Shown here: piece by piece, positions 2,232-34,245 of the stretch
How positions within the stretch are numbered: position 1 is the stretch's first letter
How the letters are laid out: each line of letters opens with the position of its first letter
From: Candidatus Shapirobacteria bacterium
Lineage (GTDB): Bacteria > Patescibacteriota > Microgenomatia > UBA12405
Direction of reading: 5' to 3'
DNA: 34,245 bases
Assembly (NCBI GenBank): GCA_023245435.1
Contig: JAHFKH010000004.1
Location: forward strand, 3,714-37,958
Made by a program: the position numbers and the translations under genes
The notes under the pieces: model-generated
What the model saw: only the letters and a program-made list of their open reading frames with translations
What the model was told of the DNA's origin: nothing
Database searches by the model: none

Positions 2232-3095
2232 TTATTCTAACGCCAAATCAATAATTTTATCCAACAATTGCGAATAACTTATTCCAATTACAGAAGCTTC
2301 TTTGGGAATTAACGAATGTGACGTCATCCCCGGAAGCGTATTAATTTCCAAGATATATGTTTTATTTTTATGAATTATAAAATCAATTCGAGCATACCCT
2401 CTAGCTTTTACTGCCAAATAAACCTGTCTTGCTAATTCCTGTACCTCTTCCGTTAATTTTTTACTAATTTTAGCAGGACAATTATATTCCGACTTATCAT
2501 CACTATACTTTGCTTCATAGTTATAAAACCCAACCTTAGGCATAATTTCTACTACAGGTAAAACAATAATATCTTTATTGCCAATGACCCCACACGACAG
2601 TTCTATTCCTTCCAAATACTCCTCAATCAACACTTCGTCATCATATTTTTTGGCATTTTGGATAGCTTTAGATAAATCATTTTGCTGTTTTACAATGGTT
2701 ACCCCAATACTTGATCCACCATTAACGGGTTTTACCACGCAAGGAATTTTATTAGTCAATTTAGCCATAGGCAATTTTAATCTCTCCATTACCCATCGAA
2801 AAATCATTTTATCCATACCAACAGCCGAGGCCAAAACCCCCGATCCGGTATATTTTATTCCCTTGGTTTCCAAATACCCCTGAATTTGTCCATCCTCTCC
2901 CCCTTTTCCATGTAAAGCCAACAATGCCACATCACAACCATCAATTTTATTTAAATCTTTTGGTAAATCCACTTTAACAACTTCATATTTATTCAAATCT
3001 AAATGTTTAACCATCTCGTTCCCTGTCATCAGTGACACTTCCCTCTCCGAGCTTTCTCCCCCCATCAACACGGCCACTTTTAGTTTTTTGTGCAT
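2232..3095 (-). CDS. ddl: D-alanine--D-alanine ligase
   Basis: KVAVLMGGESSEREVSLMTG start, HGKGGEDGQIQG, ATP-grasp core, C-terminal EINTLPGMT motif. Confidence 0.9.
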   Translation of the reverse strand: MHKKLKVAVLMGGESSEREVSLMTGNEMVKHLDLNKYEVVKVDLPKDLNKIDGCDVALLALHGKGGEDGQIQGYLETKGIKYTGSGVLASAVGMDKMIFRWVMERLKLPMAKLTNKIPCVVKPVNGGSSIGVTIVKQQNDLSKAIQNAKKYDDEVLIEEYLEGIELSCGVIGNKDIIVLPVVEIMPKVGFYNYEAKYSDDKSEYNCPAKISKKLTEEVQELARQVYLAVKARGYARIDFIIHKNKTYILEINTLPGMTSHSLIPKEASVIGISYSQLLDKIIDLALE

Positions 3096-3100
3096 TATCT

Positions 3101-3108
3101 ATTATAAT
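3101..3108. promoter_or_regulatory. Palindromic -10 element ATTATAAT in the 20-bp ddl/murF divergent spacer
   Basis: Reads TATAAT on both strands. It lies 7 nt from the murF GTG (3116) and 5 nt from the ddl ATG (3095). Confidence 0.5.
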
Positions 3109-3115
3109 ATAGTCA

Positions 3116-4315
3116 GTGAAAAAATATTTATCGCTCCTTTTGCTTTACTATTTCCGGTTTTTTGCGAGACTCCAGCTTCTAAAAAACCGAAAAATGACCA
3201 TTGTCGGTGTCACAGGCTCGGCTGGTAAAAGCTCGGCTATCAGTGTTTGTCAAGCTGCCTTAGGTTCAAAATATAAAATCAAAACCAATAATGGCACCAA
3301 TTCTGAATCTGGCATTCCTTTTGCCATATTGGGCATAAAAATTTCTGGTTATTCCCCTATAGATTGGCTAAAATACATACTCTTGGCACCAATACAGTTA
3401 ATTTCTAACTGGCAAAAATATGACATTTATTTGTGTGAAATGGGCGTCGATGGACCCGATTCGCCCAAAAATATGTCTTTTCTTCTTACAATTATTAAGC
3501 CCCAAATTGGTATTTTTCTCAATGCTAATTTGTCTCATTCCCAAAATTTTGACCAAACTTTACCCACCGACCAAATCCTATTAAAAATCGGATTAGAAAA
3601 ATCAAAATTAATCACCTCTCTCCCCTCCACTGGTTTTGCCCTTATCAACAACAATGATCCAATTGTTGCTAAAACCACTCAAAATACTTTGGCCAAAAAA
3701 ATATATTTAAAACCAATTCATATTGATTTTTCCAATTTTGCCACTCCCCAAAGTTTTGATGTTTCAATTTCGGCCGCCATTAACTTAGCTCAAATTTTTA
3801 ACATCAATCAAACCGAGGCTATAAATAATATAAAAAATAATTTAATCCTTCCTCCCGGCCGCTGTTCTATTTTAAATGGCATTAACAATTCCACTATTAT
3901 TGATAGTTCTTACAACTCCTCCCCCTTGGCTTGTAGTGAAATGTTGGATATCTTAAAAAAATATCCATCACCACGAATTGCCGTTTTGGGTGATATGCGC
4001 GAATTGGGTCTTCAATCAAAATCCGCCCATCAAAATATATATCAACTCGCTTTAAAATCGGCTGATACTATTATTAGTATCGGAACTGATACCAACAAAC
4101 ACTTTGGTGATAAAGCTATAAAATTTTTAAATTATTCTGACGCCTCAATATACCTCATCAAAAATTTACCCAAAAATGCCACTGTTTTAGTCAAAGGTTC
4201 CCAAAATACAATTTTTCTCGAAGAGTTAGTTAAATCAATTCTTAAAAACCCCGCCGACGCAAATAAACTTTGTCGTCAATCCCCCTATTGGCTAAAAATA
4301 AAATCTGTTCATTGA
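3116..4315 (+). CDS. murF: Short-form UDP-MurNAc-tripeptide--D-Ala-D-Ala ligase (Mur ligase family, lacks the N-terminal domain)
   Basis: P-loop GVTGSAGKSS at residues ~32-41, DSSYNSSP and LGDMRELG MurF-type motifs; divergent neighbour of ddl; GTG start. Confidence 0.75.
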   Translation: MKKYLSLLLLYYFRFFARLQLLKNRKMTIVGVTGSAGKSSAISVCQAALGSKYKIKTNNGTNSESGIPFAILGIKISGYSPIDWLKYILLAPIQLISNWQKYDIYLCEMGVDGPDSPKNMSFLLTIIKPQIGIFLNANLSHSQNFDQTLPTDQILLKIGLEKSKLITSLPSTGFALINNNDPIVAKTTQNTLAKKIYLKPIHIDFSNFATPQSFDVSISAAINLAQIFNINQTEAINNIKNNLILPPGRCSILNGINNSTIIDSSYNSSPLACSEMLDILKKYPSPRIAVLGDMRELGLQSKSAHQNIYQLALKSADTIISIGTDTNKHFGDKAIKFLNYSDASIYLIKNLPKNATVLVKGSQNTIFLEELVKSILKNPADANKLCRQSPYWLKIKSVH

Positions 4316-4332
4316 TACCATCTCAAAAAACA

Positions 4333-4338
4333 TATAAT
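4333..4338 (+). promoter_or_regulatory. -10 box TATAAT 8 nt upstream of the ATG at 4347 (leaderless-type arrangement)
   Basis: Exact hexamer; no Shine-Dalgarno between it and the start codon. Confidence 0.45.
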
Positions 4339-4346
4339 ATCTTTAT

Positions 4347-5444
4347 ATGTTTAATCTATTTTCCAAAAAAGAACCAGTTACTGTTGCCCCTATTAAAGTT
4401 GAACCAAAACCAAACACCAATGGTCAACTAAATATTGACAAAGAAGCTTTAAAAAATATTAAATTGGTCACTGTCGCCTACTCTCACGTCGAACGCGACA
4501 TGTTTCCTACTCAAGATGCCTACGATGCCGAAATTGAAGTCGAAGACCGCGCCAAAGAAGTCGCCGATGTCATCAAAGAATTGGGCATCGAAGTCAAACT
4601 AACCCCCGGCAATCAATATTTATTAACTACACTATTAGTCGACAAACCAGATGTGGTTATCAATTTGGTCGACACTCTTCGGGGCAAAGACCGTCTGCAA
4701 ACTTCTGTTCCCGCCTCACTTGAATTAAGTAATATCCCCTACACTGGTGCCGGTATGGAAGGATTAATTATTGGTAACGATCGTAATTTAACCAAAAGAC
4801 TATTAATTGCCTACGACATTCCCACTCCTGCTTTTCAATATATTCGTCGTGCTGGCACTGCTATTCAAGAAGATTTGGGTTTGCCCTTGATTGTAAAACT
4901 TTGTGGTTCCGGTGGATCTGTTGGTATTGACAATCACGCTGTCAAAGAAACCATTAAAGAAGCTCAAAATAAAGCTGACAAAATGCTTAGTGTATACAAA
5001 ATGCCTGTTATTGTTGAACAATTTGTTGATGGCCCCGAAATTACAGTTTGCATTTTTGATGATGGCATCAAAAATCATGTTTTTATGGCTCAAAAAGTTT
5101 TCCGCAAAAAACCCGATGGTAAACATTATTTTACCAGCATCGAATCGTATGAAGATGCTCGAGCCTACACCTACACTCCTGTCGAAGAACCAATTCAAAC
5201 CAAAATTTCGCGACTGGCCATTCGCGCTTTTAATGCTCTAAATCACAAAGATTACGCCAAATTTGATATTCGTTACAACGAAGCCACCAATACCCCCTAC
5301 TTTACCGACAGTAATCCTAATACTGCTTTTGGTCCTGATATGGGATTGCCATTTACTGAAGTTGCCGCTATGTATCATGTCAGTTTTAAAGACATTGTTG
5401 CTTCTATGCTCAGTAAATATGGTAAACAAATTTCCAAATCTTAA
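4347..5444 (+). CDS. ATP-grasp enzyme of the D-Ala-D-Ala ligase family (second paralog, ~45-aa N-terminal extension)
   Basis: Ddl-like layout: LVDTLRGKDRLQ, NDRNLTKRLL, LPLIVKLCGSGGSVGI, VIVEQFVDGPEITV, FDIRY...TPYFTDSNPNTAFG. Confidence 0.75.
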   Translation: MFNLFSKKEPVTVAPIKVEPKPNTNGQLNIDKEALKNIKLVTVAYSHVERDMFPTQDAYDAEIEVEDRAKEVADVIKELGIEVKLTPGNQYLLTTLLVDKPDVVINLVDTLRGKDRLQTSVPASLELSNIPYTGAGMEGLIIGNDRNLTKRLLIAYDIPTPAFQYIRRAGTAIQEDLGLPLIVKLCGSGGSVGIDNHAVKETIKEAQNKADKMLSVYKMPVIVEQFVDGPEITVCIFDDGIKNHVFMAQKVFRKKPDGKHYFTSIESYEDARAYTYTPVEEPIQTKISRLAIRAFNALNHKDYAKFDIRYNEATNTPYFTDSNPNTAFGPDMGLPFTEVAAMYHVSFKDIVASMLSKYGKQISKS

Positions 5445-6006
5445 ACGAATTGCTCAAATAAATAGTTATTATTGTGGCCCGGCCTCGCTACAAATGTTGT
5501 TTAGTTTTTACAATGTTGACATTGAACAACAGCAAGTTGTCGATTATTTAGGTATTAACGACAAAATTATAAACTTTGGGACCACCATTCAAGAATTAGG
5601 TACTTTTGTCAAAGATTTATATCCCCAATATCAATTTTGGTACAAATTAAATTCTTCAATTACTGAATTATCACAAATAATAAACGAGTATAAATACCCT
5701 GTTGGCGTTGAGTGGCAGGGAGTTTTTGATTATCCCGACGAGGAAAAATCAGAAGACGAAGATGATGACCCAGGTCACTTGGCTGTCATTACTGAGATAA
5801 ATACCAGTAAAAATTATATTTATATTGCCGATCCGGATATACATTATGCCGGTAAAGACCGAAAATTTTCTATTCTTCAGTTTGAACGTCGTTGGTGGGA
5901 TATAAATGTTATTAACCATCAAGAAATTGATGATTATCACGGGCTTTTTTTTATTTCCCCTCAAAATATTTCCTTCCCCCCAGAATTTCAACTTCTCAAG
6001 CCTTAA
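5419..6006 (+). CDS. Papain-like cysteine peptidase, C39-like (Peptidase_C39_2-type)
   Basis: QINSYYCGPASLQMLFSFY (catalytic Cys context), PGHLAVITEI (His), IADPD (Asp). The ATG at 5419 is preferred over the track start 5263, which lies inside the ATP-grasp gene. 26-nt overlap with the upstream gene. Confidence 0.6.
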   Translation: MVNKFPNLKRIAQINSYYCGPASLQMLFSFYNVDIEQQQVVDYLGINDKIINFGTTIQELGTFVKDLYPQYQFWYKLNSSITELSQIINEYKYPVGVEWQGVFDYPDEEKSEDEDDDPGHLAVITEINTSKNYIYIADPDIHYAGKDRKFSILQFERRWWDINVINHQEIDDYHGLFFISPQNISFPPEFQLLKP

Positions 6007-24608: not shown

Positions 24609-24962
24609 ATGTCATTAAAAATCCTCATTGTCGAAGATGATTTATTTTCCGCCAATATTTATCAAAACCACTTAACCAAAGCTGGTTATATTTCCAAAAT
24701 TGCCACAGATGGTCGTACCGCCTTGGATTTAGCCGATTCATTTCACCCCGACTTAATAATTTTAGATTTAATTCTTCCCAAAATTGATGGTTTTACTCTA
24801 ATTCATTTATTTAAAAAAACTCCAATTATTATAGTTTCTAATCTCGATCAAGATGACGACATTGAAAAATGTCTTAGTACCGGCGCCAAGCTGTTTATCA
24901 CCAAAGAATCAATTAACTACGACAAATTAATCTCCGAAATCAATAAATTACTCGATCACTAA
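24609..24962 (+). CDS. Stand-alone response-regulator receiver domain (CheY-like)
   Basis: KILIVEDD, DLIILDLILPKIDG (phospho-acceptor Asp context), no output domain; TATACT 8 nt upstream of the ATG. Confidence 0.85.
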   Translation: MSLKILIVEDDLFSANIYQNHLTKAGYISKIATDGRTALDLADSFHPDLIILDLILPKIDGFTLIHLFKKTPIIIVSNLDQDDDIEKCLSTGAKLFITKESINYDKLISEINKLLDH

Positions 24963-25661
24963 ACTCCCATTAACATCAGTCCTTAACACCGACGTCCCCA
25001 CTCCCAACACTCGTCCCAAAACTTCGCTACTCGGGTGACCATAATTATTTTTACCTACCGATACGACCGCAAAATTCGCATTTATCCGCTGCAACCACGC
25101 CTGTGAATTCCCCGTTTTTGATCCGTGGTGCGACAACTTAACTACATCAATCGGCTCATTTATACTATATATAATACTGTTCTCAACCAACTCATCAATA
25201 TCACCCGTAAATAAAATCGATTTATTGGCAAATTTTAATATTCCTACTACCGAATCATTATCCCGCGGGACCAATCCCACCAGGGGAAAAATCACCTCAA
25301 ATTCAAAATTATTACCCTTGACCACATCACCCTTAAACAAATCCCCCAACCCCACTATTTTTTTAATTTGATAATATTTTTTTAATTTTTCCAAAGCCCC
25401 ACTGTGATCATTATCCAGATGCGACAACATTACTATTTCCAATTTTTTATCCCCTAGCGGCAAATTTTGATCCAAACATTTTTCAATTCCCCCGGCAACT
25501 GGCCCAGTATCGATTAACATTTGAAAATAACCAGAAGTTACCAAAGCCGCATCACCTTGCCCCACGTTACAAAAAATTACTTTAACTTTATTACTCGGAA
25601 TTACCACTATCCAACCCCACATCAAATATATCAATCCCAATAAAAAATATTTTTTATACAT
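24948..25661 (-). CDS. comEC: ComEC metallo-beta-lactamase domain encoded as a separate ORF (own N-terminal TM helix)
   Basis: VIFCNVGQGDAALV, MLSHLDNDHSGAL (HxHxDH-type), LSHHGS; 8-nt overlap with the upstream ComEC membrane ORF. Confidence 0.8.
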   Translation of the reverse strand: MYKKYFLLGLIYLMWGWIVVIPSNKVKVIFCNVGQGDAALVTSGYFQMLIDTGPVAGGIEKCLDQNLPLGDKKLEIVMLSHLDNDHSGALEKLKKYYQIKKIVGLGDLFKGDVVKGNNFEFEVIFPLVGLVPRDNDSVVGILKFANKSILFTGDIDELVENSIIYSINEPIDVVKLSHHGSKTGNSQAWLQRINANFAVVSVGKNNYGHPSSEVLGRVLGVGTSVLRTDVNGSLVIE

Positions 25662-26478
25662 GCTTTTTTCTCATATAATAACCAACTCCTATTACATAAC
25701 TGGCCACCATCATCCAAACATTAAAACTAACTCTAACTTGAGCCATACTCGGCATTGATAAAATTTGCACCGTTTTTTCAATATATACCAACAACGGATA
25801 AAGTAACCACCAAATTGGATGAAAAATAATTCCTAAAAAGCCCAACACCGTAATCGTTTCCACCAAAAATAAAGTCATTAAATTTGACAAAGGGGCCATT
25901 AAACTTAAATATCCAAATTTAAAGGCCAATAATGGTAATAACCACAAATTTACTCTTAAAGTTGTTTTGATTACTCCCTCATTTGGATTTTGCGACACTG
26001 CCATAAATGCCAAAAATGACATCCAAAAACTTACTGAACTCAAAACTCGATAATCAGCCACTATCATTATCATCAAAACTAAAATTATCATTCGTAAAAA
26101 ATTTGTTTTTCGCCCCAACAATTGTCCCAAATACATAATTGTCACCATTATCACTGCTCGAGTCGCCGGAATTTGCCAACCGACCAAACTCACATAAAGC
26201 CAACCTATGGTAATTCCCAAAATTATAGACTGTTTTCGACCAAGCCACTGAGCCAACAATTCAATTAATCCTTTGACCACAATCATCAAATTTGAACCAG
26301 ACACTACCAAAATATGAATCAAACCCGTCACCACCATTTGGTTATAAAATTCTTTTGAAATTCCCGACACGTCACCCCACAACATTGCTACCAACATCGA
26401 TGCCTGCTGATTTGGTAAATATCTCAAAACTTCATAAATCAATCTTATCTTTAATATTTCCATAAATTTTGTCCCCAA
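25654..26478 (-). CDS. comEC: ComEC 'Competence' integral-membrane channel domain (no N-terminal OB/DUF4131 region)
   Basis: ASMLVAMLWGD....TGLIHILVVSGSNL motif plus multiple TM helices; start uncertain (26478 or 26463). Confidence 0.8.
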   Translation of the reverse strand: MGTKFMEILKIRLIYEVLRYLPNQQASMLVAMLWGDVSGISKEFYNQMVVTGLIHILVVSGSNLMIVVKGLIELLAQWLGRKQSIILGITIGWLYVSLVGWQIPATRAVIMVTIMYLGQLLGRKTNFLRMIILVLMIMIVADYRVLSSVSFWMSFLAFMAVSQNPNEGVIKTTLRVNLWLLPLLAFKFGYLSLMAPLSNLMTLFLVETITVLGFLGIIFHPIWWLLYPLLVYIEKTVQILSMPSMAQVRVSFNVWMMVASYVIGVGYYMRKKHV

Positions 26479-26758
26479 TTCCCGAGACTTCCTTTAACTG
26501 TTCCTTGGAACTAAATTTACCCACACTATTTCGATAATCAACAATTCTTTGAGCCATTTTGTCACCAATTGACGGCAAATCAACCAATTCCCGCACCGTG
26601 GCTTGATTGATATTTATCTTTCCCATCATCTTTTGCTCTGCTTTAACTATGGCCACTTGTTGTTCCTTAAAATTATCAGCCAATTTAACTCGCAAGCCCA
26701 CAATCATTAACACCACCCCCACGACTATTACCAAATCCCCCCAATACCGTTTAAACAT
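26432..26758 (-). CDS. comEA: ComEA-type DNA receptor (TM anchor plus helix-hairpin-helix)
   Basis: ININQATVRELVDLPSIGDKMAQRIVDYR...LKEVSGIGDKIYGNI. The Met at 26758 (MFKRYWGDLVIVVG) is preferred; the track start 26803 lies inside a GC hairpin. Confidence 0.8.
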   Translation of the reverse strand: MFKRYWGDLVIVVGVVLMIVGLRVKLADNFKEQQVAIVKAEQKMMGKININQATVRELVDLPSIGDKMAQRIVDYRNSVGKFSSKEQLKEVSGIGDKIYGNIKDKIDL

Positions 26759-26792
26759 AATCAAATAATACAACTTAATATCAATATTTATA

Positions 26793-26812
26793 GGCGGACA
26801 CATCGGTCCGCC
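26793..26812. repeat. GC-rich hairpin ggcggac-acatcg-gtccgcc in the divergent comEA / surface-cluster spacer
   Basis: Perfect 7-bp GC stem in AT-rich DNA. Confidence 0.5.
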
Positions 26813-26853: not shown

Positions 26854-27429
26854 ATGTATAATTTTATAATGTCTCAATATATTAAAATCATATCATTTTC
26901 TGCCGCCTGTCTGATTTCCACTATTATCATTAATACCCCATTAAATTATTATTCCCCTCAAATTATTGCCCTATTATCAATCATCACTATTATTAGCTAC
27001 TTAATCAATAAAAAAATATACCTTACCCCCTTTATTTTTTTAATTCAAATTATTGTTTTTGCTACCGGCAGTCTTCAATCACCCCTTCTATTTTTAGAAT
27101 ATTTCCTTTTATTTTCCTTGGCCTTTAGGGAAACCCCCAAAATTATTCTTATTTACTCACTAATATTATCTGTATTTATTTCCCAATCCTTAAACGGGTT
27201 TTCATCACTCATTTATTTATTTTCCTTTTTATTTATTGCCCCACTAGCCTATTTTGTAACTCAAAACAATCAAGACAATCAAAAATTGTCATACAGTCGA
27301 GAGGAAACATTGCTGTGGCTAACCTTAGACTTAAAACAAAAACTCCAAAAATTATTACCCTCAAAACAAATTCAAAAAATTATCAATCACACCGACGAAC
27401 TAATCAAAGAGTTAGAAAAAAATGACTAA
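26854..27429 (+). CDS. Polytopic membrane protein, first gene of the surface cluster (alternative start at 26869)
   Basis: About 5 hydrophobic helices then a charged C-terminal tail; 8-nt overlap (ATGACTAA) with the next gene; TATAAT at 26857-26862 would make the 26869 ATG leaderless. Confidence 0.6.
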   Translation: MYNFIMSQYIKIISFSAACLISTIIINTPLNYYSPQIIALLSIITIISYLINKKIYLTPFIFLIQIIVFATGSLQSPLLFLEYFLLFSLAFRETPKIILIYSLILSVFISQSLNGFSSLIYLFSFLFIAPLAYFVTQNNQDNQKLSYSREETLLWLTLDLKQKLQKLLPSKQIQKIINHTDELIKELEKND

Positions 27430-28126
27430 AATAATTTTTCTTATTTTTCTTGTTACTAGTTTTCTGTTACCTGTTACCATTCTAGCTCAACACTTTTCGT
27501 CAAATAGCTACAATATCGATTGGGGAAATTTTAATATAACTTCAGGGCGAAAAACTTCAACCAACTATAGCTTAACCGATACTGTCGGTCAAAACGCTCC
27601 TGGTGAATATAGCAAAACTGGTGTCAAAATTAAATCTGGTTTTCAATATATTTATCCTTTTGATCAATTTTCTTTTGCCGTTGATAATTTAAGTATTGAT
27701 TTTGGTGCCCTCACTCCAGGTGTGGCTTCAACCGCGACTTCAACTTTAACTATTACTTCCCCCAGTGGTCATGGTTTTCAAATATCTAGTTTTGAAAATA
27801 CACCTCTTAAGTTAAATGGTGGCACCACTATTCCTGATGTTGCCGGCGACAATAATCTAGCCTCAGAATCAACTGCCGACTTGTGGCAAAACGCCACTAC
27901 TTACGGTTTTGGATTTAATGCTAATACTACCTATTTTACCAGTAGTAATCATTTTCGCCAGTTTGCCGATTTTTCTAATTTTGAAACTCCCCAAGTTCTT
28001 GATTCATCCAACACCCCTGTCAAAAATCATCAAACCAACATTACTTACAAAGTTAACATTTCCACAAAACAGTCAGCTGGTACTTATCAAAATTATATCG
28101 TTTATATTGCCACTCCCCAATATTAA
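27422..28126 (+). CDS. Secreted beta-rich protein with a WxL-like / pilin-like C-terminal module (small member)
   Basis: Signal peptide MTKIIFLIFLVTSFLLPVTILAQ; SxNY repeats (SSNSYNIDWGNF, STNYSLTDTVGQ); IDFGALTPG, TYGFGF, FRQFAD; terminal AGTYQNYIVYIATPQY. Confidence 0.6.
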   Translation: MTKIIFLIFLVTSFLLPVTILAQHFSSNSYNIDWGNFNITSGRKTSTNYSLTDTVGQNAPGEYSKTGVKIKSGFQYIYPFDQFSFAVDNLSIDFGALTPGVASTATSTLTITSPSGHGFQISSFENTPLKLNGGTTIPDVAGDNNLASESTADLWQNATTYGFGFNANTTYFTSSNHFRQFADFSNFETPQVLDSSNTPVKNHQTNITYKVNISTKQSAGTYQNYIVYIATPQY

Positions 28127-28129
28127 ACT

Positions 28130-28942
28130 ATGGCCAACCTTTCTATTAAACCATCTAAATTAGAAATTCAGCTTCAACCCGGAGCCAGTTATACCCAAGT
28201 CTATACTATTACTAATAATGGACAGCAGTCGGTTACCCTCAGTAGTTCTGTTGATAGTTGGGTACCCCAAGGGTCACGTGGCAACATTACCTATCTTAAT
28301 TCCCCTTCCGATATAAATTTATCTCTATCTAATTCTGATTTAAAATTGGGTCAACAATTTATTTTGTTACCCAATCAAAGCCGACAGTTAGTTTTAAAAA
28401 TTCAAGTTCCCTCTGAATTAACTAATGGCGACCGCTATCTAACCTTCTTTATCAATCAAGAAGGTAGTGCCAATCTTTCAACCAATTCAACACAGCTTAT
28501 CAGACTTGGATCACATCTGCTAATATCAGTTTCTAACACTGAACAAACTTCAACCGACTTTAAAATTATTAATTTTAAAGTCAAAAATATTTTTATTGAT
28601 ACATTTTTTTCCCCAATCAAATTTTCTGGAGAAATTCAAAATCAATCTGATTATTTTAATCAAATAGACAATTCAATCACCATTACCAAAAACAATACTA
28701 TTATAAAAGAGCTAACCATTTTTCCCGATAATGTTTTGGCTCATAACTCTCGCCAAATTCGTTGTTTAGCCGATCAATCCCCAGTTGAGTGTCAATTAAG
28801 TAAACCTCTATGGCCAGGAGTATATCAAGCTTCAATTGACAAAACTACAATTTCTTTTATTGTCTTACCATATACACTATTTATAATAATCATTTTTTTG
28901 TTTATTATATTTAAAGTAATATTTAACATCAATAAAAAGTGA
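28130..28942 (+). CDS. DUF916/DUF3324-like Ig-fold protein with a C-terminal TM anchor and no signal peptide
   Basis: LSIKPSKLEIQLQPGASYTQVYTITNNG parallels the 31919 protein; C-terminal ISFIVLPYTLFIIIIFLFIIFKVIF plus a basic tail. Confidence 0.55.
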   Translation: MANLSIKPSKLEIQLQPGASYTQVYTITNNGQQSVTLSSSVDSWVPQGSRGNITYLNSPSDINLSLSNSDLKLGQQFILLPNQSRQLVLKIQVPSELTNGDRYLTFFINQEGSANLSTNSTQLIRLGSHLLISVSNTEQTSTDFKIINFKVKNIFIDTFFSPIKFSGEIQNQSDYFNQIDNSITITKNNTIIKELTIFPDNVLAHNSRQIRCLADQSPVECQLSKPLWPGVYQASIDKTTISFIVLPYTLFIIIIFLFIIFKVIFNINKK

Positions 28943-30384
28943 AAACAATATTATTAATTCTATTTTTGATTTTTCCCCAAATTGCTTTAGCCTCCCCCAC
29001 CGAGTTTAAAGACACTCTTTCCTCCTCTCAACTTTCTTATTTTGCCCGACTCGACTCGGGAGTCAATACTGGTGATTCATTAATCAAAGTTGCTCTCAGT
29101 GGCAACCCCAGCAACAATACTAACAATCTTTTTGTCGGTGATACTGTTGGAATTGGCACTACTGCAACCAGTGGACCACTCACAATTTATACTATCAATG
29201 ATATTGGTAACACTGCTCTTTTCCAAATTAATTCAGGAATTGGTTCAAGCAACGCTTTTGCTGGTGCGGCCATCATTGCCACTCGTTCAGCTATCCATAC
29301 ATTTTCCTTTGTCCCTCAATCAAATTTTACCGGTGGATTTTGGGAATTTTTAATCAAAGCCACCGATACTTCTGGTGAAACTGGAAACGATGGTATTCCC
29401 GATACTAATGGTTTTGATTTAGGTGCTACCACCCCAAGTTCAGGCGCTAATGGCCTTGGCACTCGCTTAAAAATTACCGACGTTACTTGTCCCAATTGGG
29501 GTACCGGTACCACCACCGCCTATAGCGTTGGTACCACCGCTTTGGTTACCACTACCACTGGCACCACTACTTATCACGTTATTTCCTGTTATTTGGGTGT
29601 CGGTGGTACCAATTTAATTGGAGGTACGGGTTATACCCTAACTATAGGCAAAGATTTGGGTAGCGGTAGCCAACTTATTAACCCCAGCCCCAAAGACGCC
29701 AACCAAGGTTCAGCTGATGTCTATACTTTTTATATTCGTCACCGTGATTCTAGCTCGACTTTATTTGACTCCGACACAGTTCAAGGCAAAATTGCCCTAA
29801 TCGAGGCCGTTCGAGTCACTGCTATTGTCGATCCCACTATTACTTTTACGATTGACGCCATTGGGGTTGGTGTCGGCTCAACTGCCTGTAATTCACCTGC
29901 TTTTGGTACCAATGCCGCCAGCACCACTGCCACTCAAGTTTCTTTTGGTTCAGTTCCACTCGGTGTTGCCAATGATTTGGGTCAACGATTATCATGTACT
30001 ACCAACTCCAACAATGGTTATGTCGTCACCGTTTATGAAGACGGTAAAATGAAAAATATTAGCGACGGCATTACTATTCCCGATACCAATTGTGGTGGTA
30101 ATGGTTGTACTAGCAGCGGTGTTGGTACTAGCTGGACTTCATTTAATACTTCTGGTTGGGGTTATACCATTCAAAATTTAAATGTTGGTAATACTATTTT
30201 TAGCAATCCTAATTATCGACCTTTTGCCGATGGGTCCAGTAATGCTCAAGAAATAATGAAAAATACTGGCACTCCCACTACCACCGAACAAGCTTATGTT
30301 TGCTATCGTTTAACTGCTTCAACTACCCAAGAAGCCGGAAATTATGAAAATCGTTTAATTTATACGGCCACAGCCACCTTCTAA
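28939..30384 (+). CDS. Large secreted Thr/Gly-rich surface protein, paralog 1, WxL-like C-terminal module
   Basis: GTG start overlapping the upstream stop (GTGA); signal peptide; 8 conserved Cys; terminal AGNYENRLIYTATATF. Confidence 0.65.
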   Translation: MKTILLILFLIFPQIALASPTEFKDTLSSSQLSYFARLDSGVNTGDSLIKVALSGNPSNNTNNLFVGDTVGIGTTATSGPLTIYTINDIGNTALFQINSGIGSSNAFAGAAIIATRSAIHTFSFVPQSNFTGGFWEFLIKATDTSGETGNDGIPDTNGFDLGATTPSSGANGLGTRLKITDVTCPNWGTGTTTAYSVGTTALVTTTTGTTTYHVISCYLGVGGTNLIGGTGYTLTIGKDLGSGSQLINPSPKDANQGSADVYTFYIRHRDSSSTLFDSDTVQGKIALIEAVRVTAIVDPTITFTIDAIGVGVGSTACNSPAFGTNAASTTATQVSFGSVPLGVANDLGQRLSCTTNSNNGYVVTVYEDGKMKNISDGITIPDTNCGGNGCTSSGVGTSWTSFNTSGWGYTIQNLNVGNTIFSNPNYRPFADGSSNAQEIMKNTGTPTTTEQAYVCYRLTASTTQEAGNYENRLIYTATATF

Positions 30385-30419
30385 TTGACTTCCAAACCAA
30401 TTGTAACTATATTTAATTA

Positions 30420-31907
30420 GTGAAAAATATTATTATTATTGTAGTTCTTATTACCGTTTCTTTTATTTCTGCTATCTATTATCCTCAGCCCATAAAATCT
30501 GCTCCCCCAACCAGCTTCAAAGACACTTTATCTTCATCTCAATTATCTTATTTTGCCCGAATTGGTACTGGTGTTAGCACTGGTGATTCTTTAATCCGAG
30601 TTGCCTTAAGTGGCAATCCCACCAATGACACTAACAATCTTTTTGTCGGTGATACTGTCGGTATCGGCACTACTGGTGTTGGAGTAGGTACTAGTGGATT
30701 ATTAACTATGTACACCGTCCGGGACATTGGTAACACTGCTTTATTTCAAATAAATAGTGCTATTGGTCAAAGTAATGCTTTTATTGGTGCTGCTATTATT
30801 GCCACTCATTCGGCTATTCATACTGTTACCTTTACTCCCCAATCAAATTTTATGGGTGGATATTGGGAAATTTTAATCAAAGCCGCCAATACTACGGGCG
30901 AAGTAATAAACGACGGTATTCCTGACACTAGTGGTTTTGATTTAGGTGCCACTACCCCCACCTCGACTGCCAACGGCGTGGGTACCCGTCTAAAAATTAC
31001 CGATGTTACTTGTCCCAATTGGGGAACTGGTACCACTACTGCTTTTAGTGTTGGTACCACTGCCATCATCGCCACCGGTGTTGGTTCAAGCGGTACTTAT
31101 CACGTTATTTCTTGTTATTTGGGTGTCGGTGGCACTAATCAAATTGGAGTTGGTTATTCCCTAGCCATCGGTAAAGATTTGGCCTCTGGTAGTCAACTTA
31201 TCAATCCTAGCCCCAAAGATGCCAACGAAGGTTCTGCTGATGTCTACACTTTTTTTATTCGCCATCGTGACTCGGCCGCTACACTGTTTGACTCAGATAC
31301 CGTCCAAGGTAAAATCGCTCTTGTTGAAGCTGTCCGAGTTACCGCTACTGTCGACCCAACTTTAACTTTTACCATTGATGCAGTTGGGGTGGGTACCGGT
31401 TCAACCGCCTGCAATTCCCCTGCTTTCGGTACTAATGCTGCCAATACTACCGCGACTCAAGTTGCTTTCGGTTCACTTTCCTTAGGAGTGGCCAACGATT
31501 TGGGTCAACGATTGTCATGCACCACCAATTCCGATAATGGTTACGTCGTTACTGTTTACGAAGATGGTAAAATGAAAAATATTGCTACGGCCACTACTAT
31601 TCCCGATACTACCTGTGGTGGTACCGGCTGTACCAGTAGTGGTGTTGGTACTAGCTGGTCTACATTTAGTGCTTCCGGCTGGGGTTATACTATTCAAAAT
31701 TTGACTGTGGGTACCTCTATTTTTACTTACGGAAATTATCGACCATTTGGAGATGGAGCTGCTAATGCTCAACAAATTTTTAAAAATACCGCTACCCCAT
31801 CAACTACCGAACAAGCTTACGTTTGTTATCGTTTAACCGCTTCGACTACTCAAGAAGCTGGAAATTATGAAAATCGTTTAATTTATACCGCTACCGCTAC
31901 TTTTTAA
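30420..31907 (+). CDS. Large secreted Thr/Gly-rich surface protein, paralog 2
   Basis: Collinear with 28939-30384 over the full length; identical C-terminal 40 aa; GTG start. Confidence 0.65.
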   Translation: MKNIIIIVVLITVSFISAIYYPQPIKSAPPTSFKDTLSSSQLSYFARIGTGVSTGDSLIRVALSGNPTNDTNNLFVGDTVGIGTTGVGVGTSGLLTMYTVRDIGNTALFQINSAIGQSNAFIGAAIIATHSAIHTVTFTPQSNFMGGYWEILIKAANTTGEVINDGIPDTSGFDLGATTPTSTANGVGTRLKITDVTCPNWGTGTTTAFSVGTTAIIATGVGSSGTYHVISCYLGVGGTNQIGVGYSLAIGKDLASGSQLINPSPKDANEGSADVYTFFIRHRDSAATLFDSDTVQGKIALVEAVRVTATVDPTLTFTIDAVGVGTGSTACNSPAFGTNAANTTATQVAFGSLSLGVANDLGQRLSCTTNSDNGYVVTVYEDGKMKNIATATTIPDTTCGGTGCTSSGVGTSWSTFSASGWGYTIQNLTVGTSIFTYGNYRPFGDGAANAQQIFKNTATPSTTEQAYVCYRLTASTTQEAGNYENRLIYTATATF

Positions 31908-31918
31908 AAATTAAAAAA

Positions 31919-32893
31919 ATGAAAAAAATAATCCTACCCATTCTTTTTCTATTTACTAGTTTATTGTTACCAGTTTCGGTCAATGCACAAAGTGCTCTGG
32001 GTTTATCTGCTATTCCTCCTCGTTTAGAAATTACTGTCAAACCCGGTGAATCAGTCACCAAAACCATCAAAGTTAGAAACGAATCAAAAGTTGAAAAAAT
32101 TATTACCACCATAGTTAAAGATTTTATCGTTGTTGATGACTCGGGCACTCCAATTCAAATTGATAGCAAAGACGTCTCCAATCGCTGGGCCGCCTCTTCA
32201 TGGGTTCAGGTTTCCAGTGATAAATTAATCCTTAAACCCGGTGAAACTCGTAGTTTAAGTGTTACCATTATCGCCCCCGAAAACGCCCTCCCTGGTGGCC
32301 ACTATGCCATGATTCTTCACTCCCCCAACAACGATACCGTTTTATCCGAAACCGGTGCCGTTATTCAAACCAATGTTGGCACCTTGGTTTACATCACCAT
32401 TCCCGGCCAAATAAATGAAGCCGCTAATATCAAAGATTTTTCCGCTCCTTTCTTTTCCGAATATGGTCCCATACCTTTTAAAGCCATCATTACCAATTTA
32501 TCCGACGTTCATATTTCTCCCCTCGCCGTCATCAATGTTACCAATTTTCTTGGTTTAAAAACCGCTTCATTACCCTTAAGCAACATCAATATTTTTCCCT
32601 ATACTAGTCGAGAATATACCGCCACTTTAAATCGTCAATTAATGCTTGGCAAATTTAAAGCCCAACTTACAGCTATTTATGGTAGTACTGGTCAAATTGC
32701 TACTGGTACTATTTTCTTTTGGGTAATTCCCTGGAAGTTAATTATCACTTTAATTGCCATTGTTGTCATCATTATCCTCATGATCAAACTAAAAAAGATA
32801 TCCCAAAATGAAACAGGGCAATCAGTTCCCAAAATCGCTGAGTTAGAGCAAGAGTTAGAAACTCTCAAGAAAAAATATAAAGATCGAAGTTAA
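31919..32893 (+). CDS. DUF916/DUF3324-like cell-surface protein with a signal peptide and C-terminal TM anchor
   Basis: Signal peptide ...PVSVNAQS; LSAIPPRLEITVKPGESVTKTIKVRNES; LPGGHYAMIL; second beta domain; FFWVIPWKLIITLIAIVVIIILMIKLKK. Confidence 0.6.
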   Translation: MKKIILPILFLFTSLLLPVSVNAQSALGLSAIPPRLEITVKPGESVTKTIKVRNESKVEKIITTIVKDFIVVDDSGTPIQIDSKDVSNRWAASSWVQVSSDKLILKPGETRSLSVTIIAPENALPGGHYAMILHSPNNDTVLSETGAVIQTNVGTLVYITIPGQINEAANIKDFSAPFFSEYGPIPFKAIITNLSDVHISPLAVINVTNFLGLKTASLPLSNINIFPYTSREYTATLNRQLMLGKFKAQLTAIYGSTGQIATGTIFFWVIPWKLIITLIAIVVIIILMIKLKKISQNETGQSVPKIAELEQELETLKKKYKDRS

Positions 32894-33110
32894 TTCACCA
32901 GTTTTAGTCAGTGCCTCAATTCCCGAAAATCGTTTAATAATTTTTGGGTACACTTCACCCAACTCTCGTGTCGAACTTAGTAATCCCAATATTTTTAGTG
33001 CTACCTATAGTGACAAAGATGGTTACTTTATTTTTGATCGAATTATTATCCCCAAAGGTTCAGGTGAATATTGTTTAGTTTCCCAAGACGAGTCAAACCG
33101 CGCCAGCCCC

Positions 33111-33617
33111 GTGTTGTGTCTTCCTCCCCCTCCGGCTACCAACACTTTGACCAATATTGGTCCTATTGTTTTGGCTCCTACCTTATCTCAAGACAAAAAT
33201 TCCCAAACCTTAATTACTTCGGGTCAAAGTGTTCCCAACTCCACCGTTAATATTCAAATTTTTCAAGTCGAAAATAAACCTCAACTCATAAAACCGGTTG
33301 AGGCTTTTTCTTTACCTCAATTTTCCACTACTACTGATCAAAATGGTAATTTTAGTTTAAATTTACCCACCCAATATTCTTCCGAGTATCGATATTATGC
33401 TACCGTGATTACTCCAAAATCATTGGCTTCTGCCAAATCAAATATATTGTGGTATCAAAACCCAGGCCAATTTAACTACCTCCCCTTCATTTTATTTTCA
33501 ATTGCTGTCATAATTATGTTGCTAGTTATTTTTTATAAAAAACATAAAACCGCTCCAATTATTTACCATTATTATCCTGCTTTGCGGCCTCATTATTGGC
33601 CTCGTTCTCTCTTCTAG
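33111..33617 (+). CDS. Ig-like-repeat surface protein fragment with a C-terminal TM helix; the frame is open back to 32859 with no ATG/GTG/TTG
   Basis: Two similar beta-domains (LIIFGYTSPNSRVEL..DKDGYFIF ; TSGQSVPNSTVNIQI..DQNGNFSL), then LPFILFSIAVIIMLLVIFYKKHK. The first canonical start (GTG at 33111) falls between the domains. Confidence 0.5.
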   Translation: MLCLPPPPATNTLTNIGPIVLAPTLSQDKNSQTLITSGQSVPNSTVNIQIFQVENKPQLIKPVEAFSLPQFSTTTDQNGNFSLNLPTQYSSEYRYYATVITPKSLASAKSNILWYQNPGQFNYLPFILFSIAVIIMLLVIFYKKHKTAPIIYHYYPALRPHYWPRSLF

Positions 33618-33957
33618 GTCAATAATTTTTCAAGGCAAAGCCACCTCGACCAATTCCAGTGTTGTCAGTGTCCAAAATTCTTATTTATTTGGCTCACCCC
33701 TAACTGCCAAAGCCGATGGTCAAGAAAAAATCAGATTAACCATATTTTTATTAGATTCTCGGGGACTAGGGGTTAGTAATCAAAAAGTAACCATCATTGC
33801 TCCTCCTACACTGGTTTTGACCAACATTCAAGCCATTACCGATGATACCGGCAAAGCTATTTTTGATTCGACTTCTAATACCGCCACCACCTATCAAATT
33901 TCCGCCTCCACCGGCGATCAAATTCTCCCTCAAAAAGTTAAGATAACCTTTTATTGA
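33535..33957 (+). CDS. TM-anchored Big_1-like (invasin/intimin-type Ig) domain protein with no canonical start codon
   Basis: Frame open 33526-33957: LQLFTIIILLCGLIIGLVLSS then SVQNSYLFGSPLTAKADGQEKIRLTIFLLDSRGLGVSNQKVTI...TDDTGKAIFDSTSNTATTYQISAS. Absent from the ORF track because only ATA/ATT-type codons precede the TM helix. Confidence 0.45.
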   Translation: MKNIKPLQLFTIIILLCGLIIGLVLSSRSIIFQGKATSTNSSVVSVQNSYLFGSPLTAKADGQEKIRLTIFLLDSRGLGVSNQKVTIIAPPTLVLTNIQAITDDTGKAIFDSTSNTATTYQISASTGDQILPQKVKITFY

Positions 33958-34015: not shown

Positions 34016-34245
34016 GTGGAAGATAATAAATTCGAGAAACTAAAAGTATGGCAACTAGCACACGAATTAACTTTAAATATATATAAAATAACTAAAACAT
34101 TTCCTCAAGATGAAAAATATTCTTTAGTTGATCAAATCAAAAGATCATCAAGTTCTGTTCCAACCAATATAGTTGAGGGTAATGAAAGGAAAACAAGAAA
34201 CGAGTACGTTCAATTTTTATATATTGCAAAAGGCTCAATTGCCGA
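34016..34245 (+). CDS. Four-helix-bundle protein (23S rRNA intervening-sequence protein / Avd-like family), 3' end cut by window edge
   Basis: (GTG)EDNKFEKLKVWQLAHELTLNIYKITKTFPQDEKYSLVDQIKRSSSSVPTNIVEGNERKTRNEYVQFLYIAKGSIA matches the family pattern FxxLxVWQxA..L...Y..T..FP..E.Y.L..Q..R...S...NI.EG..R....E...FL.IA.GS. Confidence 0.85.
   Translation, partial: MEDNKFEKLKVWQLAHELTLNIYKITKTFPQDEKYSLVDQIKRSSSSVPTNIVEGNERKTRNEYVQFLYIAKGSIA

Follow-up and report, generated by a model that had tools for sequence, protein, structure and literature searches.

We analysed a 34,245-nucleotide (nt) stretch of Candidatus Shapirobacteria contig JAHFKH010000004.1 (the window, meaning the whole of this stretch), in which eight co-directional + strand open reading frames (ORFs), six of them with clear starts, occupy positions 26854-33957. 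This cluster most probably encodes a divergent Microgenomatia (Shapirobacteria-type) member of the Pam donor-strand pilus system of the candidate phyla radiation (CPR), and on our best reading its genes provide for a tip subunit and a tandem pair of PamA-like pilins, along with two anchored chaperones and a tether resembling PamR. The ORFs are arranged as follows, with lengths in amino acids (aa); Ig denotes immunoglobulin and TM transmembrane.

26854..27429, + strand: polytopic membrane protein, 191 aa (186 aa from the internal start taken by gene callers)
27422..28126, + strand: PamT-like single-module subunit, putative pilus tip/initiator, 234 aa, with a signal peptide and a match to NCBIfam model NF058579
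28130..28942, + strand: anchored chaperone-like protein 1, 270 aa, with a pair of Ig-like domains and, C-terminally, a TM helix followed by a basic tail, and without a signal peptide
[quoted passage not shown]
31919..32893, + strand: anchored chaperone-like protein 2, 324 aa, in which a signal peptide and two beta-sandwich domains precede a TM helix and a near-invariant cytoplasmic helix
32883..33617, + strand: PamR-like candidate tether/terminator, ~244 aa, without a canonical start
33535..33957, + strand: small membrane-anchored Big_1 (invasin/intimin-type Ig) protein, ~140 aa, without a canonical start before 33817

The six clear ORFs are joined by overlaps of 8 and 4 nt and gaps of 3, 35 and 11 nt. 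The eight packed + strand ORFs with such overlaps and with gaps of 3-35 nt, as described in an earlier reading made from the letters alone (the sequence-only reading), are borne out, the last two being ORFs without a canonical start.

The Pam pilus is a filament formed by donor-strand exchange with the help of chaperones and without an usher (Troman et al., bioRxiv 10.64898/2026.03.03.709456); its components PamA and PamB were identified by cryogenic electron microscopy of filaments from Candidatus Mycosynbacter amalyticus, a Saccharimonadia parasite. As described there, a linker strand in each Pam pilin joins a beta-sandwich N-terminal domain to a truncated Ig-like C-terminal domain, and PamT, the proposed tip, consists of the C-terminal domain only, without the linker strand. 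PamC and PamD are PapD/FimC-like chaperones with a C-terminal TM helix, PamE also lies in the operon, and PamR, the proposed tether, is an RbmA-like tandem FnIII protein that has a strand at its N-terminus and a TM helix at its C-terminus. By predicted domains and folds, the architecture of the cluster proteins matches this description: a single-module tip-like subunit, large pilins that join a beta-sandwich N-terminal domain through a linker strand to an incomplete Ig-like C-terminal domain and carry conserved cysteines, two PapD-like chaperones that each carry a TM helix at the C-terminus, and last a TM-anchored protein with two weakly detected domains, without usher or sortase. In size the 234-aa protein matches PamT (25.6 kDa), and the 495-aa pilin can be set beside PamA (55 kDa). 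The sequence-only reading had held that the locus could be an undescribed system, which can no longer be maintained: the Pam pilus was described in 2026, PamA-like proteins were reported in Microgenomatia from a language-model search at ~21% identity (Troman et al.), and NCBI models exist. The cluster is probably a further member of this recently described system with variant features, and not an unknown system.

Two NCBIfam hidden Markov models (HMMs) that derive from the Pam preprint connect the cluster to it. Model NF058579 (CPR_pilus_PamT) matches residues 4-234 of the 234-aa protein on model positions 6-241 of 241 (E 6.5e-12, 45 bits) and is matched by 51 of 52 homologs of that protein (best E 1.2e-15). 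Model NF058581 (Pam pilin C-terminal domain) aligns to the same protein over the full domain (34.6 bits, E 1.8e-8) and is matched by 48/52 small-subunit homologs. The curated cut-offs are 240 bits (equivalog) for NF058579 and 55 bits for NF058581; with significant scores below them, the 234-aa protein appears to be a remote full-length PamT homolog and not an equivalog by the NCBI criterion. These matches support the usher-less donor-strand fibre system that had been one of two suggestions in the sequence-only reading.

The C-terminal module of the 234-aa protein (residues 88-234, nt 27683-28123) is shared with the 495-aa protein at 29% identity over 150 aa (BLASTP E 9e-16), the family HMMs of the small and large subunits match each other with E 5e-21 to 1e-23, and the PamT-family HMM matches residues 332-480 of the 481-aa protein (E 1.4e-23), upholding the earlier view that a module, here of ~150 aa, is common to all three secreted proteins. 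In one PamT-like relative, protein P0390 (479 aa), a Laminin_G_3/ConA-like lectin domain is inserted in the module, which fits a tip adhesin. The profile search also returned a 2559-aa relative, P0458, with a PamT-like module at its end. The gap from the PamT-like stop to the chaperone-1 start is usually 0-3 nt (3 nt in the window), a spacing that suggests coupled translation and a dedicated pair. Readthrough of the PamT-like stop codon into chaperone 1, which is in frame in the window and would account for that protein's lack of a signal peptide, was rejected because the frame relation between the two genes is random across 72 genomes (22/23/27).

The 481- and 495-aa proteins are tandem paralogs with 79% identity, a duplication that is rare (the window and one other genome). 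In the 495-aa pilin the linker strand IALVEAVRVTATVDP spans residues 299-313 (nt 31314-31358) and the C-terminal module residues 344-495 (nt 31449-31904); in the 481-aa pilin the corresponding segments are residues 285-299 (nt 29791-29835) and ~332-481. NF058581 matches the 495-aa module across residues 344-495 on model positions 2-148 of 148 (18.1 bits, E 0.002), and it is matched by 27/61 large-subunit homologs. The AlphaFold model of the 495-aa pilin (predicted local distance difference test score 85.9) begins with an N-terminal helix and is otherwise all-beta: the N-terminal domain is followed by long strands at 289-302 and 315-320 and then by the C-terminal domain at 344-495, so that the Pam arrangement of beta-sandwich N-terminal domain, single linker strand and C-terminal domain is present. 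The linker IALVEAVRVTATVDP is also the most conserved 15-aa window of the pilin family (mean column identity 0.90), followed by peaks at the mature N-terminus and the C-terminal strand. Pam pilins show the same pattern, with conservation focused on the linker and the groove/C-terminal strand (10.64898/2026.03.03.709456). A peak at the linker is expected of a polymerising donor strand and not of a monomeric surface protein. At the pilin N-termini (28939-29030 and 30420-30520 in the window), the family retains the motif P-x4-S-A-P-P-T-x-V-K-D-T-L after the hydrophobic signal segment; a Pro directly after the apparent A-x-A-type site would be unusual for signal peptidase I.

Structure searches with the pilin model bear on two other explanations. 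Whole-chain Foldseek of the 495-aa model was noisy, with integrins and MSCRAMMs (FnBPA, ClfB) at the top and TM-scores < 0.2, and this dominance of generic Ig-rich proteins would suit a set of unrelated secreted or anchored Ig-fold surface proteins, adhesins or an envelope layer, that do not assemble by strand exchange. We regard that explanation as very unlikely, given the specific, family-wide HMM matches to Pam models, an operon order that is fixed across ~80 species, the translational coupling of subunit and chaperone genes, and the focus of conservation on the linker and C-terminal strand. The same search returned the TasA fibre (8aur_A, probability 1.00, E 1.5e-3) as well as CfaB (probability 0.99), SafD, CsuE and FimH. 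Since usher-less donor-strand fibres are known in monoderms and archaea, the TasA match could be taken to mean that the pilins form a chaperone-free, self-assembling matrix fibre like those of TasA/camelysin or the archaeal threads and that the anchored Ig proteins are unrelated adhesins. The TM-scores of this match are low (0.20/0.36), however, Pfam gave no TasA/camelysin (Peptidase_M73) or SCPU match at E<=1, SipW and TapA were not found, and the anchored proteins resemble pilus chaperones and have genes tightly coupled to the subunit genes. We regard a chaperone-free matrix fibre as very unlikely too. The likeness to TasA/TapA of Bacillus subtilis lies in a predicted monoderm, usher-less donor-strand fibre and in the Foldseek match of the pilin model, and the cluster differs from it in having dedicated anchored chaperones.

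The 270- and 324-aa proteins are paralogs (24% identity, BLASTP E 2e-7; profile E 1.4e-15 over the full length), and each has a TM helix and then a basic tail at its C-terminus, in agreement with the pair of anchored Ig-fold paralogs proposed in the sequence-only reading. The AlphaFold model of the 324-aa protein (score 79.5) contains two beta-sandwich domains, a TM helix at 272-299 and a cytoplasmic helix at 304-321. PapD/FimC-like chaperones with a C-terminal TM helix, a feature of Pam, are therefore present on the strength of this model and, for the 270-aa paralog, of the profile. The best matches of the 324-aa model in the PDB are Enterococcus faecium WxL-interacting protein (WxLIP) structures, 9i25_C (E 1.3e-11) and 9i1y (~1e-11), followed by CfaA (4ncd, E 1.3e-10, TM-score 0.56), CsuC, FimC, YadV, CupB2 and DraB; the E-values for pilus chaperones range from 1e-10 to 1e-8, and RbmA is also among the matches. 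Pfam gave no confident match for the cluster proteins up to chaperone 2, only weak, sub-threshold hits to WxLIP_PGBD (PF06030, DUF916) for both anchored proteins (E 1.1e-3 for the 270-aa and 0.026 for the 324-aa protein). Such sub-threshold matches recur in 44/49 members of the 324-aa family (best E 8.8e-6), and the DUF916/WxLIP architecture that the anchored proteins had been given is thus sustained. DUF3324, PapD_N and PapD_C had no Pfam match in window proteins or anchored-protein homologs, and Pfam found nothing for chaperone-1 homologs from two other genomes. In searches against PDB sequences, the chaperone-family profile gave no WxLIP match, and neither the proteins of 234, 481 and 324 aa nor the family profiles (A3, A4) returned anything meaningful, the Pam structures being absent from the copy searched or too distant.

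These matches make the case for a WxL/Csc-like, non-filamentous surface complex, in which anchored WxLIP-like proteins complete the beta-sandwich of the subunits and no polymerisation takes place. A typical WxL cluster combines a single small WxL protein, a single large one whose C-terminus carries the domain, and a single WxLIP (DUF916, DUF3324 and a TM helix); a strand of the WxLIP is predicted to close a gap in the beta-sandwich of the WxL domain (PMC10599100). The present cluster equals this canonical composition, with a small module-only subunit, a large subunit with a C-terminal module and a two-Ig anchored protein; the 324-aa protein finds in WxLIP both its best Pfam match and its best PDB matches (9i1y and 9i25_C, which show WxLIP by itself and in complex with a long WxL protein), and none of its 49 homologs matches PapD_N. 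We nevertheless consider a non-filamentous complex unlikely. The module, which the sequence-only reading had likened to a WxL domain, gave no Pfam WxL match at E<=1 in window proteins or in 52 homologs and lacks the W-x-L motif in a motif scan, yet it matches the Pam pilin domain; DUF3324 is not matched; and the linker is the most conserved segment, as expected of a polymerising donor strand. WxL proteins are moreover described as peptidoglycan-bound surface proteins and not filaments, and WxL clusters are confined to Lactobacillales and Bacillales.

The cluster likewise differs from chaperone-usher systems (class 5 CFA/I, archaic Csu, Fim/Pap), with which it shares a two-domain chaperone fold (TM-score up to 0.56), a pilin-like Ig module (CfaB) and an invariant aromatic C-terminal residue on the subunits. 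In our own comparison, the first chaperone strand starts with an invariant Arg that appears to fall at the position of PapD Arg8. Unlike those systems, the cluster has no usher and there is no outer membrane, its chaperones are membrane-anchored and have no PapD_N/PapD_C match, and its pilins have two domains with the inter-domain linker, not an N-terminal extension, as the proposed donor strand. Pfam, NCBIfam and motif scans found no sortase, LPXTG, usher or SipW in the cluster, as the sequence-only reading had noted; among the window ORFs scanned there was no sortase and no usher-like ORF, and the subunits lack an LPXTG signal coupled with a C-terminal anchor. The WxL domain, SCPU, TasA/camelysin, sortase pili and classical chaperone-usher pili were accordingly rejected as identities, their defining features being absent.

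Conservation of gene order was surveyed by tblastn in 80 species-level loci, with counts taken among loci that have enough flanking sequence. The recurrent order is comEC(-), comEA(-), membrane protein, PamT-like gene, chaperone 1, an optional insertion of 0-5 kb, pilin, chaperone 2 and PamR-like gene. Chaperone 1 lies directly 3' of the PamT-like gene in 65/68 loci and the membrane-protein gene directly 5' of it in 65/76; pilin and chaperone 2 are found within 8 kb in 26/37, the PamR-like gene follows chaperone 2 in 18/37, and comEA/comEC stand upstream and divergent in 49/58. The sequence-only reading had called for a check of gene order in relatives and would have been weakened by a cluster that was not a conserved unit; because the order recurs across the ~80 species-level loci, the cluster is such a unit. 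A full profile search yielded 2,031 protein clusters at 50% identity. The named homologs belong to Shapirobacteria, Woesebacteria, Microgenomates or Patescibacteria, with a few metagenome-assembled genomes under other labels, so that the restriction to CPR seen for Pam holds for named homologs. The closest genomes are Candidatus Shapirobacteria of the Microgenomates group, and a genome scan for Pam loci returned only Microgenomates-type loci. All database homologs are annotated as hypothetical protein because their scores fall below the NCBI curated cut-offs.

Several observations weigh against assigning the cluster to the Pam system. Sequence similarity is remote, and all NCBIfam matches lie below the curated cut-offs (45 vs 240 bits; 35 and 18 vs 55); the 481-aa pilin, searched by itself, gives no match to NF058581, the chaperones match no NCBIfam model and thus offer no sequence-level link to Pam, and the PamR-like protein has no NCBIfam/Pam HMM match. 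Likeness was judged through the NCBIfam models and the preprint description rather than by direct comparison with M. amalyticus sequences or structures. In M. amalyticus every Pam component carries an N-terminal signal peptide (10.64898/2026.03.03.709456), whereas here, judged by hydropathy, chaperone 1 has none in 67/72 genomes (window 28130-28942 and loci L003-L086), and the PamR-like protein has none in the window and many relatives and has one in some. Family profiles turned up no shorter pilin of the PamB or PamE kind in the window, where one pilin type, tandemly duplicated, takes the place of PamA, PamB and PamE. The conserved neighbour is comEA/comEC and not, as for Pam, ATP synthase, and a conserved polytopic membrane protein and a Big_1 membrane protein stand first and last. 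Finally, we infer the filament, the donor-strand exchange and the complex in this lineage from genes and predicted folds.

Under the Pam assignment a plausible assembly route can be drawn, whose sequence and fold relationships come from the present analysis and whose functional steps are taken from work on M. amalyticus and from chaperone-usher biology. The PamT-like subunit, both PamA-like pilins and chaperone 2 have N-terminal signal sequences, through which Sec would export them. The subunits would each end in an incomplete Ig-like module, capped at first by a beta-strand from an anchored PapD/WxLIP-like two-domain chaperone. Because the PamT-like protein has the module and lacks the N-terminal domain and linker, it could only accept a strand; it would therefore start the fibre and come to lie at the distal tip. 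Pilins would then be added at the membrane-proximal end, each donating its linker strand into the module of the previous subunit by donor-strand exchange, with neither usher nor sortase taking part. The PamR-like protein would supply a final N-terminal strand, terminating the fibre and tethering it to the membrane. The likely function of such a fibre is adhesion to, or reach towards, a host cell.

The chaperones depart from the Pam pattern in two respects. The 270-aa protein has no N-terminal signal peptide; in its homologs a C-terminal TM helix is found in 66/72 and an N-terminal hydrophobic segment in only 5/72. The net charge is +3.5 after the TM helix and -0.4 before it, a distribution that predicts an N-out/C-in topology with the Ig domains facing outward, like those of the signal-peptide-bearing paralog. 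In chaperone 2, the cytoplasmic tail PKIAELEQELETLKKKYKDRS (residues 300-324, window 32818-32893) is near-invariant in 49 homologs, with E310, L313, L316, K317, K319, Y320 and D322 invariant, which hints at a cytoplasmic binding partner. To our knowledge, classical pilus chaperones have no such partner.

The first gene of the cluster encodes the polytopic membrane protein that the sequence-only reading had placed there. By hydropathy the 191-aa product has ~5-6 hydrophobic segments and a C-terminal helical tail; Q36, S76, F84, P130 and K161 are conserved or invariant among 63 homologs, and no Pfam or NCBIfam family was found for it. Its gene, which is translationally coupled to that of the tip subunit, overlaps the PamT-like start by 8 nt.

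Neither the seventh nor the eighth gene has an ATG, GTG or TTG start in the window, where their frames are open from ~32883 and ~33526, and their homologs elsewhere (229-244 aa and 139 aa) have canonical starts. Translation of the PamR-like gene probably starts from the ATC at 32883, which precedes the upstream stop by 8 nt, the first canonical start being GTG at 33111; the frame from 32883 is open and conserved in the window and in loci L007 and L008, both of which also keep the ATC, and homologs of 229-236 aa start with ATG or GTG. The product combines a conserved N-terminal strand, two transthyretin/CarboxypepD_reg-like beta-sandwich domains suggested by weak Pfam matches (NOMO_3rd and CarboxypepD_reg), a TM helix and a basic tail. 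The eighth gene, with an N-terminal hydrophobic segment and a Pfam Big_1 match of 49.8 bits (cut-off 34.9), probably starts at ATA 33535 or 33544 and overlaps the 3' end of the seventh by ~80 nt; a 139-aa homolog with a GTG start occupies the same position in Woesebacteria. This arrangement of overlapping starts suggests termination-reinitiation coupling. A frameshift fusion of the two is not favoured, their homologs being separate genes with their own starts.

Taken together with the WxLIP matches of the chaperones, the cluster raises the possibility of deep homology between the Pam and WxL systems, a link that the Pam preprint does not mention (10.64898/2026.03.03.709456). We tentatively entertain, as a possibility that falls well short of probable, that Pam and the Firmicute WxL/WxLIP systems are two branches of an ancient monoderm machinery for strand complementation to which Microgenomatia have added new parts. 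Within this joint reading, the additions may include a chaperone able to reach the outside with no signal peptide, a polytopic export or assembly platform that replaces the usher, and a chaperone tail through which assembly is coupled to a partner in the cytoplasm.

CPR bacteria account for a large part of bacterial diversity and apparently live attached to other cells. The Pam pilus now has a conserved, syntenic counterpart across Microgenomates (Shapirobacteria, Woesebacteria), and the locus provides a defined gene set for annotation transfer and structural work. Beyond the published Pam model it offers a signal-peptide-less chaperone, a membrane protein coupled to the tip gene and an invariant chaperone-2 tail, and its connection of Pam chaperones with WxLIP proteins of Gram-positive gut bacteria may help to interpret both systems.

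Several features of the DNA around the cluster were also noted. A promoter and terminator scan was uninformative in this AT-rich sequence. The GC fraction is 0.43-0.45 across the two pilin genes (window 29000-32000) vs ~0.33-0.36 in the flanks, a rise that probably reflects the Gly/Ala/Thr-rich composition of the pilins and not foreign origin. Divergent from the cluster on the - strand, comEA and comEC (24948-26803) include a comEC split into two overlapping ORFs, one with the Competence domain (274 aa) and one with the Lactamase_B domain (237 aa); gene calls in two relatives show this split as well. Close by, 24609-24962 holds a lone response-regulator receiver gene. The remaining window is ordinary chromosome, with genes for LeuRS, MreB, RuvABC, CTP synthase, Mur, Ddl, MurB and ribosomal L1 and L10 in addition to comEA/comEC. 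At 2232-6006, a Mur ligase gene stands between two genes of the D-Ala-D-Ala ligase family, after which comes a Peptidase_C39-like protein; these Ddl/Mur genes, with MurB and MreB elsewhere in the window, are consistent with a peptidoglycan-bearing cell. A gene for a 23S rRNA-intervening-sequence (four-helix-bundle) protein (PF05635, E 1.7e-28) at 34016-34243 is partial at the window end. In two relatives (L003/L004, 16482 to the end, and L005/L006, 14912 to the end), the cluster is followed by a Phage_int_SAM-like small ORF and, downstream, by a giant protein (>1,100 to 3,190 aa) with a Peptidase_S74 tail-fibre-type domain; a tail-fibre-like neighbour of the Pam operon has been noted as well (10.64898/2026.03.03.709456).

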